DNA of 21,484 bases, from assembly GCA_005223125.1 (NCBI GenBank), contig NJBH01000050.1, positions 1-21,484 of the forward strand, given 5' to 3'. The DNA is from Promethearchaeota archaeon Loki_b32. Lineage in GTDB: Archaea; Asgardarchaeota; Lokiarchaeia; Sigyniarchaeales; SOKP01. The notes below the pieces were generated by a model, which ran no database searches, was not told the origin of the DNA, and saw nothing but the letters and a program-made list of their open reading frames with translations. Made by a program: the position numbers and the translations under genes. Positions 6,825-19,295 of this stretch are shown one piece after another; position 1 is the stretch's first letter; every line of letters begins with the position of its first letter.

Positions 6825-9767
6825 TTGACAACCCAAGAACCCTTAGACTCCAAAGAGCCATTAGATACCGAAAAAATTGAGACCTTAATTTTAAATGGTT
6901 ATAATGAAAAAGCGTCAGAAGAAATATTTAGTATTATTGAAAGATATGAAAACCATTCAAATAAAGAAATTATATATCGAAGTCTTAGTTTATTAAATTT
7001 AATTTGTGATAAATCACCGGAAATCTCAGAGAGAACAATAAAATCTATTAATCATTTTGTTAATGATTCTGATTCGTGGATTAGATTAGTTTCATTAGAA
7101 ATTTTATATCAAATAAGTCTCTTTAGACCGAATTTATTAATAGAATTGTTAAATAAAATTCGAGGGCGTGTTTACGACCATGATTCTTCTGTAAGGAGAT
7201 TGGCTGTAAAAATTATTGGTAATTTAATTTTATCTCTACATATAGATATATATGAATTACGAGAAATTATTGAAGAGTATACAGAAAAATTAATGGATAA
7301 TGATTGGAAAGTAAAATTAAATGTAATTAGAACAATTCAAAAGATTTTAAATCAGGACTATACTAAGATTAGGAATCTAGAACCGCTTTTATCAATGGTG
7401 ATAATAAATCTTAGAGATGAAGATGATGATGTTGCAAGAGCCGCCGCAGAACTCTTAAAAATTCATGGAACATATTTCTTAACAAAAGAAAAAATATTTT
7501 ATATTTTATTAAATCTTCTTTATAACGAGGAAAACAGAGTTAAAGAACTCATAATTTGGTTATTTGGAGAAATTGGGAAAGAAAAGTCATCAGAAATAAT
7601 ATCAATAATCCCAAAATTGATTAGTTTACTAAAGGAAAAAGATTATCGCATTCAATTAAAAGTTATTGAAGCTCTTGTTAATATTGCAGAAAATAACTTT
7701 GACCAAATCTGGGCAAATCTATTGCATTCAATATTAGAAGCTAATGATTCTAATTATAGAAATTCACTAATAAATGCTGTATTTCACCTATGCCGTCAAA
7801 ATATTACTGAAATATTTCCATATTTATTTGAAGAATTAGAAAATCCCTCTGAAAATATTAGAGAGAGCATTGCCTTAGTATTCAAACGATTGTTTGAAGA
7901 ATTTCAGATCGAAATAGAAAACGAAATAACCAAAATTTTATATCAACTGGAATCACGGTTTTGGAGAGAGAGAAAGAAAACCATAATATTATTACAAAAT
8001 ATATGTTTCATCTTAGAAAGTAAAAAGATCGCTATTTGGATTACGATTGAATTGACTAAAGCTTTAAAAATTGAAAAAGATCCAGAAGTTAAAGATGAAA
8101 TCATATATACATTGAAGAACATTCATACAAATTTTACTAATATTGATGAGGCTATTGGTAGAATTAATAATGAGTTATCTTTATTCCATAAGAGAATTAT
8201 TGAATTTCAGAAGATTCCCGCTCAATTTAGAGAAAAATTGAATTCCTATATTCAGGATTTTAAATTTAATGTTACAGAAATTCAACTGAATGAAAAATAC
8301 AATAAAATTTTAAAAAAAATCAAGAAATTTAATCATTTTATTAATAAATTCGATTATAAGAGGTTAGCTTTTGATTTAATTGAAGAATGGGACGAAACTC
8401 GAGTACAAATTATTGAGGAATTAAGTATTATTAAAGGGTTTATTTCAGAAATTTGTGAGGAAAAAAAAGCAGAATTTGTTTCAAATTTGAAAGAAAAAAT
8501 TAAGACTATAAGTAATCGTGTAGATGTATTGAAAGCCGAGTTTGATCACATAAAAGAGAATAAATTTGATAGTATTTTAAATGATCAAATATCGGATCTT
8601 GAACCTACCAATATTAGTGATGATAGACTTGGATACGTAACACAGATAAGAAAAAAATTATTCAATTTGGATAATAATATTAGAGATTTATTAATTGATA
8701 ATGTAGAATTTAACGAAATTTTTAAAATTCTTTTACAAAAATGGGTTGCAGTCAAAATTGAAATTCAAGAATATTTGAATGATTTAGATCGGCAAATTAA
8801 ATTAATGAAAGATAGATTATTTGAAACTGAAATTCCCGCTTCAATCAATGGGATAAATAATGAACTAAGCTTTCAACTGCTTCAAGGACATATCCAATCT
8901 ATTATTACCGAGAGAATAGAGGGGATGAAAAGATTTAATGAGGACTTTGATAAACTAGGTGATAAAATAGAAATCCTAATAAAAAAAAATGAATTTTCAG
9001 ATACAAAAATATTAATAGAATTGAATTCTACGCATATCCAGACCTACATTGAAGAAACAGAGAGACAGATTGATGTAATTCTAGGTAAGGAAAATTTTTT
9101 TGAAGATAATAACATATTTAACCTGTATATTAGACCTTTTCTTAACAAATTCAACGCTTCAAAAGAATTATTGATTAATAAATTAAAGCATTTTGTTAGA
9201 AAATCAAACAATAAGTTATATTTGAATCAAATTAAATATTATCTTAATGTTATTAATCCCATTAAATTAGATCTACTTGCTAATTATATCAAAATAGATG
9301 TCGAACCATTAAAAGACTTAGTTTTTAAATTCATAAGTAAAAATAAGCTAAAAGCTAAAATTATCAATGAGAAACTGTATTACCAACAAATTGGATCTGA
9401 AATCCTAGATTCTAAAGAAATTCTTTTTTTTAAGAACATAAAAACAATAGGTAACGAAATTTACCTGAATTTTAAATTAACAAATCCTTCTAATTTTGAT
9501 TTTAAAGATTTACAAATATCACTTAAAGTCCCATCTTACCTGAATCTCCAACGAAAAGAAAGTTTTCCGAAATTCCTTCAAATTAATGAATTGAAACCAG
9601 GTAAAATTTTTAAGTTCAATTATGTACTAAAAGTAGATAAACAAAAAGAGCTTAAAAAGAATTTATTTGATCCTACTGCCGATGAGATAAAACTTGATCT
9701 ATATTATAGGGACCAATTTGATATCGCTCGAAAGACCACTAAACACATTGATCTATTTATTTCATAA
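6825..9767 (+). CDS. Large HEAT-repeat protein with coiled-coil middle, PCI-like winged helix and C-terminal Ig-like (adaptin-ear-like) domain
   Basis: HEAT motifs (DSDSWIRLVS, DHDSSVRRLA, DNDWKVKLNV, DEDDDVARAA, EKDYRIQLKV, NPSENIRES); long helical middle; IKLDLLANYIKID.EPLKDLVFKFISKNKLKAKI; terminal beta pattern LNFKLTNPS...LKVPSYL...LKPGK...IKLDLYY. Confidence 0.85.
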   Translation: MTTQEPLDSKEPLDTEKIETLILNGYNEKASEEIFSIIERYENHSNKEIIYRSLSLLNLICDKSPEISERTIKSINHFVNDSDSWIRLVSLEILYQISLFRPNLLIELLNKIRGRVYDHDSSVRRLAVKIIGNLILSLHIDIYELREIIEEYTEKLMDNDWKVKLNVIRTIQKILNQDYTKIRNLEPLLSMVIINLRDEDDDVARAAAELLKIHGTYFLTKEKIFYILLNLLYNEENRVKELIIWLFGEIGKEKSSEIISIIPKLISLLKEKDYRIQLKVIEALVNIAENNFDQIWANLLHSILEANDSNYRNSLINAVFHLCRQNITEIFPYLFEELENPSENIRESIALVFKRLFEEFQIEIENEITKILYQLESRFWRERKKTIILLQNICFILESKKIAIWITIELTKALKIEKDPEVKDEIIYTLKNIHTNFTNIDEAIGRINNELSLFHKRIIEFQKIPAQFREKLNSYIQDFKFNVTEIQLNEKYNKILKKIKKFNHFINKFDYKRLAFDLIEEWDETRVQIIEELSIIKGFISEICEEKKAEFVSNLKEKIKTISNRVDVLKAEFDHIKENKFDSILNDQISDLEPTNISDDRLGYVTQIRKKLFNLDNNIRDLLIDNVEFNEIFKILLQKWVAVKIEIQEYLNDLDRQIKLMKDRLFETEIPASINGINNELSFQLLQGHIQSIITERIEGMKRFNEDFDKLGDKIEILIKKNEFSDTKILIELNSTHIQTYIEETERQIDVILGKENFFEDNNIFNLYIRPFLNKFNASKELLINKLKHFVRKSNNKLYLNQIKYYLNVINPIKLDLLANYIKIDVEPLKDLVFKFISKNKLKAKIINEKLYYQQIGSEILDSKEILFFKNIKTIGNEIYLNFKLTNPSNFDFKDLQISLKVPSYLNLQRKESFPKFLQINELKPGKIFKFNYVLKVDKQKELKKNLFDPTADEIKLDLYYRDQFDIARKTTKHIDLFIS

Positions 9768-9953: not shown

Positions 9954-10988
9954 ATGCAAGAGTTAGAGAGTTATCGATTGACATTGCAAACAAAACTTTT
10001 TGGATGAAACTGTAAATTATCAGCTGATAAATTAGAAAAATTACTGACGAATGTTGGATTAAAAGGTGATATTGAAGATTCTGCTGTAATTCCTGTTCCA
10101 AATACTGATCTCCTTATGGTAAAAAATATCGATATTTTCACGCCGATTCTAGATGAACCTGAAATCATGGGAGAGATTGCCGCTGCTAATGTTGTTAACG
10201 ACGTCTTTGCTTTAAATGTCCAAGAGATATCAGGTATGCTTGTATTCTTGGGATTAAAGAAAAATATGCCAATGTACATTGCTGAAGGATTGTTAAAGGG
10301 AATTAAAAACTTCATGGAGAAAAAGATTCACTCCAAAGTTCTTGGAGGTCATACCATTTACTCGGAATGGCCGCTTATTGGAGGAGAGGCAAGCGGATTT
10401 GTGGAAAAGGACAAGCTTATCAAAAAAGATTTCGTAAAAGAAGGTGATAAATTAATCCTAACTAAACCAATTGGAAACCAAGCAATAATGGCAGCATACA
10501 GATTACAAAAAAACAATCCTGACCTATTAGAAAATTTTTCTATGAATGAAATTGAAGATTCTATAGATTTAGCTGTAAAATTAATGATAATGCCGCTTCA
10601 AGATGTCGTAAAAACAATACATACTTACAATGACATGTCATTCATTCATTCTATGACTGATGTAAGTGGTTTTGGTCTCGCGGGACATCTAAGAGAAATG
10701 CTTCAAAATTCAAAATTTTCAGCCATTATAGAGAAAATTCCTAGTATTAAACTGGCAAGTGAATTAGCTTATGAATTTAGTTATAAATATGATGACTGTG
10801 AGATGCCTGAAACCGCTGGGGGGATGCTTCTATCTGTAGATCATCAATACGCAGAAGAATTTTCACAAAGACTTAGTAGTGAATACGATGTGAAAAATTG
10901 GATTATAGGTACAATCGATAACATAAATAAACCTAATCATGTTCGCGTTTCTAAAAACGCCGAACATATTGAAATAATAAAAATCTAA
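9954..10988 (+). CDS. selD: Selenophosphate synthetase, selenoprotein (Sec18, TGA at 10005-10007), copy 1, 344 aa
   Basis: ATG 9954 is in frame with the track ORF at 10116: MQELESYRLTLQTKLFG-U-NCKLSADKLEKLL...EDSA...NIDIFTPI...ANVVNDVFA...GGHT...TDVSGFGLAGHL...ETAGGMLL. The TGA aligns with the catalytic Cys/Sec of SelD. SECIS follows the stop. Confidence 0.95.
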
Positions 10989-11060
10989 TGATGTCAATGA
11001 GATAAGCAAAAACACATTTTTGTGGGAGCTTATTGAGAAATCTGTTGTACAACAGCATCA
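10989..11060 (+). promoter_or_regulatory. Eukaryote-like SECIS element (3' UTR of selD copy 1) with an extra hairpin
   Basis: TGATG/CATCA basal helix; ATGA(G) 10997-11001 opposite TGAG 11034-11037 (tandem G.A core); ATAAGC/GCTTAT helix; unpaired A run 11008-11012; apical mini-stem CACA/TGTG; extra hairpin CTGTTG-TA-CAACAG 11042-11055. Confidence 0.88.
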
Positions 11061-11332
11061 AAGAATATTATTTTGTTTTTATTCCTCTGTTTTTTTATTA
11101 TATTTTAATATTTCTTTATCTATCGAGTTTTTCGATAAGTAATTTCGAAAAAATTAATAAATAATAAAAATTTATTCAATTACTTCTTGATTAAGAACTT
11201 TTTAGATGATTAGGAAAGTAGCTATTATATTCTCATAATTAAAATATTAAGTGTCTTAATGAATTATTTAAATAATTAAAAAATAGTTTTATAAACTTAA
11301 AATTCTAATAAAATAGATTAAGTAATCAGTGT

Positions 11333-11339
11333 GAGGTGA
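11333..11339 (+). promoter_or_regulatory. Shine-Dalgarno sequence of selD copy 2
   Basis: GAGGTGA ending 2 nt before ATG 11342; a TATA-like TTTTATAAA at 11287-11295 follows an A-rich tract. Confidence 0.8.
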
Positions 11340-11341
11340 AA

Positions 11342-12367
11342 ATGGAAAAATCAGAATATAGGCTTACCAAGGATGTAAAAATACACGGATGAAGCTGTAA
11401 ACTTGGACAAAACGATTTGAATGATTTGTTAGCCAAAGTAGGATTAGCAGGAGATATTGAAGATGCTGCAATAATACCTATACCAAATAGTGATTTGCTC
11501 CTTATCAAAAACATTGATATTTTTACTCCCATTATTGATGAGCCTGAAATAGCTGGAGAGATTGCTGCTTGTAATGTGACAAATGACATTTTTGCGATGA
11601 ATGTTCCTGAGATATCGGGTATGCTTGTTTTCCTTGCAATAAGCAAAAAAACTCCAATGAAAGTCGCAGAAGGAATTTTAAAAGGAATAAAATACTTTAT
11701 GGAAGAAAAGATAAATTCTAAAGTTGTTGGTGGACACACTATTTATAGTGAATGGCCATTAATAGGTGGAGAAGCTTCGGGGTATGTAAATAAGGATGCA
11801 ATTATTCAAAAACAAGGAGTTAAAAAAGGAGACAAACTAATTTTGACCAAGCCAATAGGACTGCAAGCTATTATGGCAGCATATAGGATTCTTAAAGATG
11901 TTCCTGAAATCTTAGAAAATTATTCTCAAAATGAACTTCAAAAATCAATCGATCTTGCTGTAAAAATTATGACAACTCCTAATCAAAATGTTGTAAAAAC
12001 AATACATTCGTACAAGGATTTTTCATTTATCCATGCATTAACTGATATTACAGGATTCGGCTTAGCTGGACATACTGCTGAAATGCTTCAAAATTCAGAT
12101 TTATCTGCGATAATTGAGACTGTTCCATCAATTAGGTTTTCTAAGGAATTATCTGATGAGCTAGGATATGCTTTTGATGATTGTTATTGCCATGAAACTG
12201 CGGGAGGAATGCTTCTTGCTGTTGATCCAGAAAAAGTGGAAGAATTTACGACTAGACTTACAAGTAATAGGATCTCTAACTGGATTGTTGGAAAAATCGA
12301 CAAAATTCAGCCGGGATTAGTCAGAGTTTCGGAAAATGTTCAAAATATTGAAATTACAAATATTTAA
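11342..12367 (+). CDS. selD: Selenophosphate synthetase, selenoprotein (Sec17, TGA at 11390-11392), copy 2, 341 aa
   Basis: ATG 11342 is in frame with the track ORF at 11417: MEKSEYRLTKDVKIHG-U-SCKLGQNDLNDLL...EDAA...NIDIFTPI...ACNVTNDIFA...GGHT...TDITGFGLAGH...ETAGGMLL. The N-terminus resembles the archaeal (Methanococcales-type) HGUxCKL motif. Confidence 0.96.
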
Positions 12368-12368
12368 A

Positions 12369-12438
12369 GATGTTAATGATATAAGCTTAAACATTATAAA
12401 TGGGGGCTTATTGAAAATTCCACCTGCGAGGTGGCATC
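12369..12438 (+). promoter_or_regulatory. Eukaryote-like SECIS element (3' UTR of selD copy 2) with an extra hairpin
   Basis: GATG/CATC basal helix; ATGA(T) 12376-12380 opposite TGAA 12412-12415; ATAAGCTT/GGGCTTAT helix; AAA 12389-12391; apical mini-stem CATT/AATG; extra hairpin CCACCT-GCG-AGGTGG 12420-12434. Confidence 0.9.
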
Positions 12439-12448
12439 AAAGGAATTA

Positions 12449-13240
12449 TTATCTCTCTTTTATTTTACCTTTAAGTTTTATAACAATTTCTCTTATTTCA
12501 TTTAAAGCTTTATCTATCAATTCTTCTCCATTCTCTACATTAAAGGCAGTTATGGAAACCTCTACCTCGACAGATAAACCAATCTTTGGATGGGTTTTGA
12601 TCCAAAGTTGAGGATATTTCTTTTCCATTTCAGTTGTATAAGCCGCAATCTGACTCTCTCCAATTCCTGAGAAAAGAAACCCTTTTTCTATGAATTTTCC
12701 CTTCTTTTCTCTTAAAATTGGCGTGATTATATTTCTGAACATTGCTTTCATCTCAGCAGGTACACCAGGTAATATGAATATGTTAGTTTTTTCTTCTTCA
12801 ATTTTAACTCCCGGGGCTGTACCTACTGTATTGGGTAAAGGTACAGATCCTTTAGGCAGATAAGCCATTTTTTTTCTTTCTTTTGTCATTCCTTCAAGTT
12901 TTAAAAGACCTCTATGATGTGCATGTTCATATACTTTTTTGATCGAATTATAAGCATGTTGATTTAACTCCAAATTTCTATTCAACCCATTCGCTATCCC
13001 TTGTAAGGTCATATCATCGAAAGTTGGGCCAATTCCTCCTGAAGTTATAACAGTGTCTGGAGAACGTTTTAATATTGCTCTAATTGTAGAAGATATAATT
13101 TCTAAATCATCTCCTATAGTTGTTATTCTCTTAACTCTGTGCCCATATTTCGTAATTCTTTTTGCCATCCAATTTGAATTTGTGTCTTGAGTCTTTCCAA
13201 TAAGAATTTCGTTTCCAATCATTAAGAGTTCTATAATCAT
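12449..13240 (-). CDS. CinA-like molybdopterin-binding-domain protein (COG1058-type; probable ADP-ribose/FAD pyrophosphatase)
   Basis: IGNEILIGKTQDTNS.WMA, GDD, TSGGIGPTFDDMT, KMAYLP.G...LPN.VGTAPG, LPGVPAEM. ATG 13240 preferred over TTG 13246. No PncC domain. Confidence 0.9.
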   Translation of the reverse strand: MIIELLMIGNEILIGKTQDTNSNWMAKRITKYGHRVKRITTIGDDLEIISSTIRAILKRSPDTVITSGGIGPTFDDMTLQGIANGLNRNLELNQHAYNSIKKVYEHAHHRGLLKLEGMTKERKKMAYLPKGSVPLPNTVGTAPGVKIEEEKTNIFILPGVPAEMKAMFRNIITPILREKKGKFIEKGFLFSGIGESQIAAYTTEMEKKYPQLWIKTHPKIGLSVEVEVSITAFNVENGEELIDKALNEIREIVIKLKGKIKER

Positions 13241-19161: not shown

Positions 19162-19295
19162 GGGGACTTGGTGTAGTTTTCCAAGCAATATCGCTTAGTA
19201 AGCACAACCCGGTGGCACAGCAGGCTCCAGATCCTACAAGCAAAAGCTGTTCCGTGGACACCTGTCGGTCGGGGGTTCAAATCCCTCAGTCCCCA
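19162..19295 (+). tRNA. trnW: tRNA-Trp (CCA) with two introns (19177-19207 in the D-loop; 19231-19259 or 19232-19260 in the anticodon loop)
   Basis: Acceptor GGGGACT/AGTCCCC+A; D stem GTGT/GCAC; anticodon stem GCAGG/CCTGT with loop CT-CCA-GA; variable CGGTC; T arm GGGGG-TTCAAAT-CCCTC. Removing 31 + 29 nt gives a 74-nt cloverleaf. CCA end not encoded; a T-tract follows. Confidence 0.88.

Follow-up and report, generated by a model that had tools for sequence, protein, structure and literature searches.

SECIS elements of Asgard archaea carry a side hairpin that forms a three-way junction below the core

Introduction

Asgard archaea have no SBP2, according to the text of two surveys (PMC4989117 and PMC11227280), which raises the question of how their SECIS elements are recognized. 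Published models of these elements end at the G.A core and treat the lower part as an unconserved internal loop. Two adjacent selD genes of Promethearchaeota archaeon Loki_b32 are each followed by a SECIS element, and a preliminary description of the locus proposed that both elements have an extra, co-varying hairpin between the 3' half of the core and the basal helix. Is this branch real, does it extend beyond selD, and what might it do? We addressed these questions by comparative sequence analysis. The window below is the whole stretch of DNA that was analyzed (contig NJBH01000050.1, positions 1 to 21,484; 21,484 nucleotides).

Results

Tandem selD genes and the selenocysteine machinery

The window contains a tandem pair of selD genes:

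9954 to 10988, + strand: selD copy 1, a selenophosphate synthetase of 344 amino acids with AIRS and AIRS_C domains
11342 to 12367, + strand: selD copy 2, 341 amino acids, with AIRS and AIRS_C domains

Each gene has a single in-frame TGA, at the conserved Sec position. In copy 1, this is codon 18 (10005 to 10007) in the motif G-U-N-C, which homologues keep as G-U-S-C. In copy 2, it is codon 17 (11390 to 11392) in the motif G-U-S-C. Directly upstream of copy 1 is a gene for a HEAT/adaptin-like repeat protein of 980 amino acids whose C-terminal part weakly matches PCI (6825 to 9767, + strand). Further downstream, the window has a tRNA-like RNA (19162 to 19294, + strand) with a 7-bp acceptor stem, a T arm, and a long interior. 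It is possibly an intron-containing tRNA, and it has a weak partial match to the tmRNA model (E = 0.0019).

Elsewhere, the genome encodes EFSec, SecS, a PSTK-like protein (a match below the curated cut-off), and a tRNA with a UCA anticodon beside secS. EFSec is of the archaeal type. Its 472 amino acids align end to end with Methanococcus SelB, and the comparison with archaeal SelB revealed no bacterial-style winged-helix extension. The L7Ae family has only two members in this genome, L7Ae and eL30, so we rejected an extra L7Ae-domain gene as a stand-in for SBP2. A 99-amino-acid Cys/His protein encoded near EFSec was also rejected as a partner because it occurs in families without selD and so is not Sec specific. 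The UCA-anticodon tRNA (contig C57 of this genome, approximately 28500 to 28655, − strand) adjoins secS, is about 5 kb from EFSec, was missed by ARAGORN, and apparently has two introns, in the D loop and the T loop. The loop of its variable arm starts with U-G-C-G and, by sequence, appears to resemble the side hairpin loop described below.

Anatomy of the two SECIS elements

SECIS elements lie directly 3' of both selD genes, and every part named in the preliminary description was found behind both copies. The features of copy 1 are as follows, all on the + strand:

10989 to 11060, +: whole three-way-junction element (covariance model, 88.8 bits, with copy 1 itself in the model's source alignment)
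10989 to 10993 / 11056 to 11060, +: basal helix P1 (comparative alignments)
10994 to 10995, pairing with 11037 to 11038, +: 2-bp canonical kink-turn helix, UC/GA
10996 to 11001, opposite 11034 to 11036, +: 3-nt bulge ending in U, then the 5' strand of the tandem G.A core
10997 to 11000, +: AUGA; 11035 to 11036, +: GA
11002 to 11033, +: upper stem, A-rich bulge, and mini-stem (the published type II part)
11002 to 11007 / 11028 to 11033, +: upper stem, 6 bp
11013 to 11016 / 11021 to 11024, +: apical mini-stem
11042 to 11055 (11042 to 11046 / 11051 to 11055), +: side hairpin P3, 5 bp
11047 to 11050, +: P3 loop GUAC, with G-pyrimidine (G-Y) at 11047 to 11048

Those of copy 2 are also on the + strand:

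12369 to 12438, +: whole three-way-junction element (sequence, folding, and covariance model)
12369 to 12372 / 12435 to 12438, +: P1
12373 to 12374, pairing with 12415 to 12416, +: 2-bp canonical kink-turn helix, UU/AA
12376 to 12379, +: AUGA; 12413 to 12414, +: GA
12381 to 12411, +: upper stem, A-rich bulge, and mini-stem
12381 to 12386 / 12406 to 12411, +: upper stem
12392 to 12395 / 12399 to 12402, +: apical mini-stem
12420 to 12434 (12420 to 12424 / 12430 to 12434), +: side hairpin P3, 5 bp
12425 to 12429, +: P3 loop UGCGA, with G-Y at 12426 to 12427

The upper part consists of six Watson-Crick pairs plus the 3b-3n pair, the A-rich bulge, and the 4-bp mini-stem, and it covaries in the alignment. 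By comparison of elements, P3 branches from the 3' strand, separated from the kink-turn above it by 2 bp, and abuts P1. The sequence and the covariation of the 2-bp helix reveal the standard features of a kink-turn: a 3-nt bulge, then G.A and A.G, with a canonical helix before them. By sequence rules, we infer that the core adopts a kink-turn to which an L7Ae-family protein binds. A convergent cinA-like gene ends 11 nt after copy 2 (12420 to 12449), where P3 may do double duty.

Some details of the preliminary description had to be revised. The extra hairpin has 5 bp, not 6, with a loop of 4 nt in copy 1 and 5 nt in copy 2, because only 2 nt would be left in the copy 1 loop if a sixth pair formed; the G assigned to that pair is the conserved loop G. 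The changes between the copies are indeed compensated, but they affect four of five pairs rather than five of six. The spacer before AUGA had been given as three unspecified nucleotides (N3); two of its bases pair with two bases after the 3' GA. This is the 2-bp helix, which had been overlooked and which completes a canonical kink-turn above the junction. The trailing AAAG, described as a shared element, is not conserved among relatives in the alignment of 95 close elements.

Comparative evidence for the junction

The junction flanks scored above all 100 dinucleotide shuffles in both copies, and for 190 of the 199 homologous elements the real score was equaled or exceeded by at most 5 shuffles in 100. 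Folding of single sequences gave a weak signal (z scores of -1.57 and -0.96). The minimum-energy fold of copy 1 is another register, with a P3 pair probability of about 0.25, because G.A pairs are not scored in folding. The support for the junction is comparative.

We gathered selD 3' regions from the class and the phylum and aligned them with MAFFT by sequence alone, in one set of 95 close elements and another of 31 distant ones. RNAalifold recovered the three-way junction unprompted on both. Pairing was present in 96% of the cells in the close set and 94% in the distant set (0 of 500 shuffles), and all five P3 pairs had double changes in both alignments. For covariation, we used our own tree-based, R-scape-like null over 3,240 column pairs. 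In the close set, the three best of the 3,240 were one pair in P1 (E = 0.007) and two in P3 (E = 0.003 and 0.011). In the distant set of 31, no single P3 pair was significant (best E = 0.26).

Parsing yielded 207 elements, of which 11 fell below the score cut, leaving 196. By eye, ten of those 11 had a P3-like hairpin, and the other, a vhuD region (L243), had no element. The counts from the 196 elements are biased towards the model, because the parser rewards both pairing and G-Y. The MAFFT-alignment results, the tree-null test, and a set of 54 elements picked by their cores are free of this bias. Within the 196, the two positions of the 2-bp helix were paired in 193 and 181 elements, each with four Watson-Crick types, and the SelD tree had 17 and 13 same-branch compensations for them. 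These positions are set by the G.A anchors, although the choice of core itself used pairing of the same helix.

In the distant family that supplied the set of 31 (L114 to L156), the 5' strand of P1 lies within the last five selD codons, and synonymous changes there are matched within the 3' untranslated region (UTR), with 5, 1, and 3 same-branch compensations. The selD stop codon of this family is the UGA of the SECIS core. The family is probably Thorarchaeia, judging from its GUGA core.

A covariance model built from close selD elements found only 16 distant elements and no type I element, and it was too narrow for a census. A loose genome-wide descriptor (P3 plus G-Y) gave 16 real matches, versus 8 to 9 in shuffled genomes.

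The side hairpin occurs across selenoprotein families

P3 was present in 242 of 247 Asgard SECIS elements from six selenoprotein groups, including 51 of the 54 elements chosen by core alone. In this genome, all eight of the other SECIS elements found have it, behind prxL, hdrA, hdrA-vhuD, and two unlisted families of selenoprotein candidates. Sec-vhuD genes across Asgard families also have it. As a control, we scored 48 regions behind Cys-vhuD genes. None exceeded 46, whereas most Sec-gene elements scored 48 to 69. Together, the alignments, the covariation, and this 247-element survey uphold a branched SECIS element with a short upper helix across Asgard archaea.

Some selD genes have a type I SECIS that also bears the arm, and some copy-2 selD genes have a copy-1-type P3 (L057:2304, L059:2448, L065:2448, and L038:3448; L075, L036, L042, L161, L163, and L169, for the two kinds together). 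This suggests that whole SECIS elements have been exchanged between genes with the arm attached.

Both unlisted families have branched type I SECIS elements. One is a protein of approximately 145 amino acids with no Pfam match, a tandem TGA-TGA (G-C-U-U, A-D-U-U), and a conserved read-through tail (L101:332-766, − strand, and L103, on contigs C24 and C32 of this genome; L261 to L290). Of 98 Lokiarchaeia genomes, 93 have a match, with two TGA codons in nearly every case, and the family is outside the seven published Asgard selenoprotein families. The other is a small single-helix membrane protein with the motif G-G-U-x-C (L106:1426-1668, + strand, on contig C70 of this genome; L291 to L310). 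It has matches in 36 of 98 genomes and is a candidate unlisted selenoprotein. Among vhuD 3' regions, five (L212, L216, L231, L243, and L245) have cores that deviate from the tandem G.A consensus. Four of these have a P3-like hairpin, and L243, behind a vhuD with two UGA codons, has no recognizable SECIS. In relatives, RNA contigs extended over no more than the 5' halves of the genes and did not reach the SECIS elements.

The P3 loop has a nearly invariant G-Y

The stem sequence of P3 is unconstrained, and the constant of its loop is G-Y. This dinucleotide was found in 237 of 242 P3 loops (C in 200, U in 37), compared to 61 expected on the basis of downstream windows and 158 on the basis of shuffling within loops. 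A purine followed the G in 3 of 242. The loop G is invariant in both MAFFT alignments. Its position also appears fixed in parser-assisted measurements: it is 9 nt before the 3' strand of P1 in 140 of 196 elements and 8 to 10 nt before it in 183, the linker between P3 and P1 is absent in 160 of 196, and differences in loop length fall on the 5' side. The most frequent loops are GCAA and GCGA, but G-Y is retained in loops of 5 to 11 nt and in non-GNRA loops.

No covariation was found between P3 loop positions and any other column of the element. Among bases that do not vary, this neither shows nor excludes a contact. We rejected a GNRA tetraloop/helix receptor because GYRA accounts for only 133 of 237 loops and 0 of 33 in the UU family, and the copy 1 loop is GUAC. 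A GYRA/receptor rule was also rejected, since a purine at loop position 3 had no link to the second mini-stem pair. In the core, the last base of the bulge is U in 245 of 247 elements. By the rules of PMC5061560, the 3b-3n pair is predicted to allow folding in Mg2+ alone in only 59 of 247.

Discussion

The branched junction is a real and general part of Asgard SECIS elements, judging from the comparative analysis, and it refines a known element. Each of the two elements described here would be the SECIS through which the N-terminal UGA of its selD is decoded as selenocysteine by the ribosome. We propose that P3 is an integral arm of the SECIS, displaying a site for recognition in trans next to a kink-turn occupied by an L7Ae-family protein, and we give this reading a probability of just under 0.6. 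The core would adopt a standard kink-turn and be bound by a housekeeping member of that family, L7Ae or eL30. Such a binder is proposed because Asgard archaea do not have SBP2, and eL30 has already been suggested as a SECIS binder in the text of PMC4989117. P3 would stack on P1 and hold the G-pyrimidine at a set height above the junction. There it might be read base specifically by EFSec domain IV, a ribosomal component, or another factor, which would supply SECIS specificity beyond what a generic kink-turn binder can give. EFSec is one candidate among several, because it has no bacterial-style extension and because Methanococcus SelB did not bind its cognate SECIS, as reported in the text of PMC11881835.

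P3 is a plausible and, we believe, good candidate docking site for an archaeal recognition factor. The preliminary description had also suggested a docking site, acting in place of SBP2. The near-invariant G-Y at a fixed position agrees with docking. However, the SBP2-like site, the kink-turn, is intact, and so P3 looks like an additional site and not a replacement. One extension of this idea is that the G-Y loop links the SECIS to the ribosome by contacting rRNA, tRNA-Sec, or EFSec, taking on the tethering job of SBP2, and that the eukaryotic internal loop is a remnant of the junction. We consider this improbable.

Might the G-Y instead act within the element, docking on invariant bases of the same SECIS and locking the kinked fold with no partner in trans? 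It could target the C-G pair on the upper side of the A-rich bulge, the adenines, or the bulge of the kink-turn. The fixed position of G-Y would suit such a strut, as would the prediction that most cores cannot fold in Mg2+ alone. An invariant partner exists, since 154 of 164 selD elements open the mini-stem with a C-G or U-G pair. GYRA loops are known helix-docking motifs, and they make up more than half of the loops (133 of 237). However, the UU family has none in 33, the loop does not covary with other columns, and its third position is not linked to the second mini-stem pair. Furthermore, junction linkers range from 0 to 5 nt, which should upset a rigid internal contact. We regard the internal contact as rather unlikely, but worth keeping in view. 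If P3 were just a stable hairpin, kept for the energy of the overall fold and capped by a GNRA-type loop that contacts nothing specifically, this would fit the high frequency of GCAA and GCGA. Loops of the GAAA type are just as stable, though, and a purine almost never follows the G, while G-Y persists in the longer and non-GNRA loops, so we give this idea little credence.

The remaining explanations place the role of P3 outside recoding or confine it to selD. P3 and P1 might form or protect mRNA 3' ends, as a terminator-like structure or an exonuclease barrier. U-rich tracts follow both elements, and P3 of copy 2, read on the opposite strand, matches the pattern of a terminator that would serve the convergent cinA-like gene. 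However, copy 1 has no convergent neighbor, and P3 is enclosed by P1, whose partner strand lies upstream of the core and, in the distant clade, inside the coding region. P3 is also found at SECIS elements within apparent operons, shortly before the next gene, and is absent from Cys-vhuD 3' regions, and a barrier has no need of an invariant loop G-Y. A purely 3'-end role is very unlikely for these reasons. The preliminary description also raised a selD-specific regulatory arm, which would give feedback on selenophosphate synthesis. The distinct type II upper part of selD elements is in its favor, but the arm is also on prxL, hdrA, vhuD, and the two unlisted families, and some selD genes combine it with a type I SECIS. 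This contradicts selD specificity, and we find the idea hardly credible.

The recognition reading that we prefer bears on how archaea recognize SECIS elements without SBP2. The eukaryotic SECIS has been proposed to descend from the Asgard element, and a third arm with a near-invariant loop dinucleotide alters the ancestral model. Constructs that contain only the core may be incomplete. G-Y offers mutagenesis and pull-down work an exact target of two bases, and P3 together with G-Y gives extra features for finding unlisted Asgard selenoproteins.

Comparison with known systems

Eukaryotic type II SECIS elements, which are bound by SBP2, share the kink-turn core with AUGA, the apical adenines, the mini-stem, and a lower helix. 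They differ in the length of the upper helix (12 to 14 bp, versus 6 to 9 bp here and 6 to 7 bp in the two selD copies) and in having an internal loop below the core, where the Asgard elements have the 2-bp helix and the branch. Rfam gave no SECIS family match up to E = 10 and no other relevant family. The k-junction of TPP riboswitches (Wang, Daldrop, Huang and Lilley 2014, PMC4005666) has the same three-way topology, with the third helix on the non-bulged strand. A k-junction, however, has that helix inserted right across from the loop, and bases of the loop are paired into the C-T stack. In the elements described here, the G.A pairs and P3 are kept apart by a covarying 2-bp helix and a linker of 0 to 5 nt, and we rejected this assignment. 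We read the element as a simple kink-turn that has a junction immediately beneath it.

The SECIS elements of Methanococcales and Methanopyrus are also archaeal, lie in the 3' UTR, and function with the same type of EFSec. According to the text of PMC4989117, methanogen vhuD SECIS elements contain AUGA and GAC/AAC. The minimal functional methanogen SECIS described in the text of PMC11881835 is an unbranched stem with a GAA/A bulge; this bulge followed by consecutive G-C pairs is absent from both copies. The same text reports no activity for a Loki vhuU SECIS placed in M. maripaludis, with construct boundaries not given there. Bacterial SECIS elements, read by the winged-helix domains of SelB, offer a functional analogy for P3: a short hairpin with a loop G as determinant (one or more G in the loop, according to the text of PMC4989117). 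They are in the coding region beside the UGA, and Asgard EFSec does not have the winged-helix extension.

The closest relatives are the SPS lokiSECIS (Mariotti et al. 2016, PMC4989117, cited in the preliminary description for its report of eukaryote-like SECIS elements in Lokiarchaeota) and the Asgard type II eSECIS-like elements (Huang, Xiao and Zhang 2024, PMC11227280). As far as their texts describe, both have the short-stem type II core of selD. The main text of the latter reports conserved lower-stem pairs in selD, at least two selD genes in 51 organisms, and no highly conserved nucleotides around the core. The main texts of both do not mention the side hairpin, the three-way junction, the 2-bp helix, or the loop G-Y. 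The text of a 2026 review (PMC13188914) describes SECIS types I and II only and does not mention the branch, and our search of the open-access literature yielded nothing further. The branch is likely to be previously undescribed. The position in the 3' UTR adjoining the stop codon, the AUGA...GA core, the short upper stem, the A-rich bulge, and the apical mini-stem are all shared with the published elements, and both elements of Loki_b32 directly follow a selD with an in-frame UGA. By these sequence features, the two elements are members of the Asgard type II/SPS lokiSECIS family.
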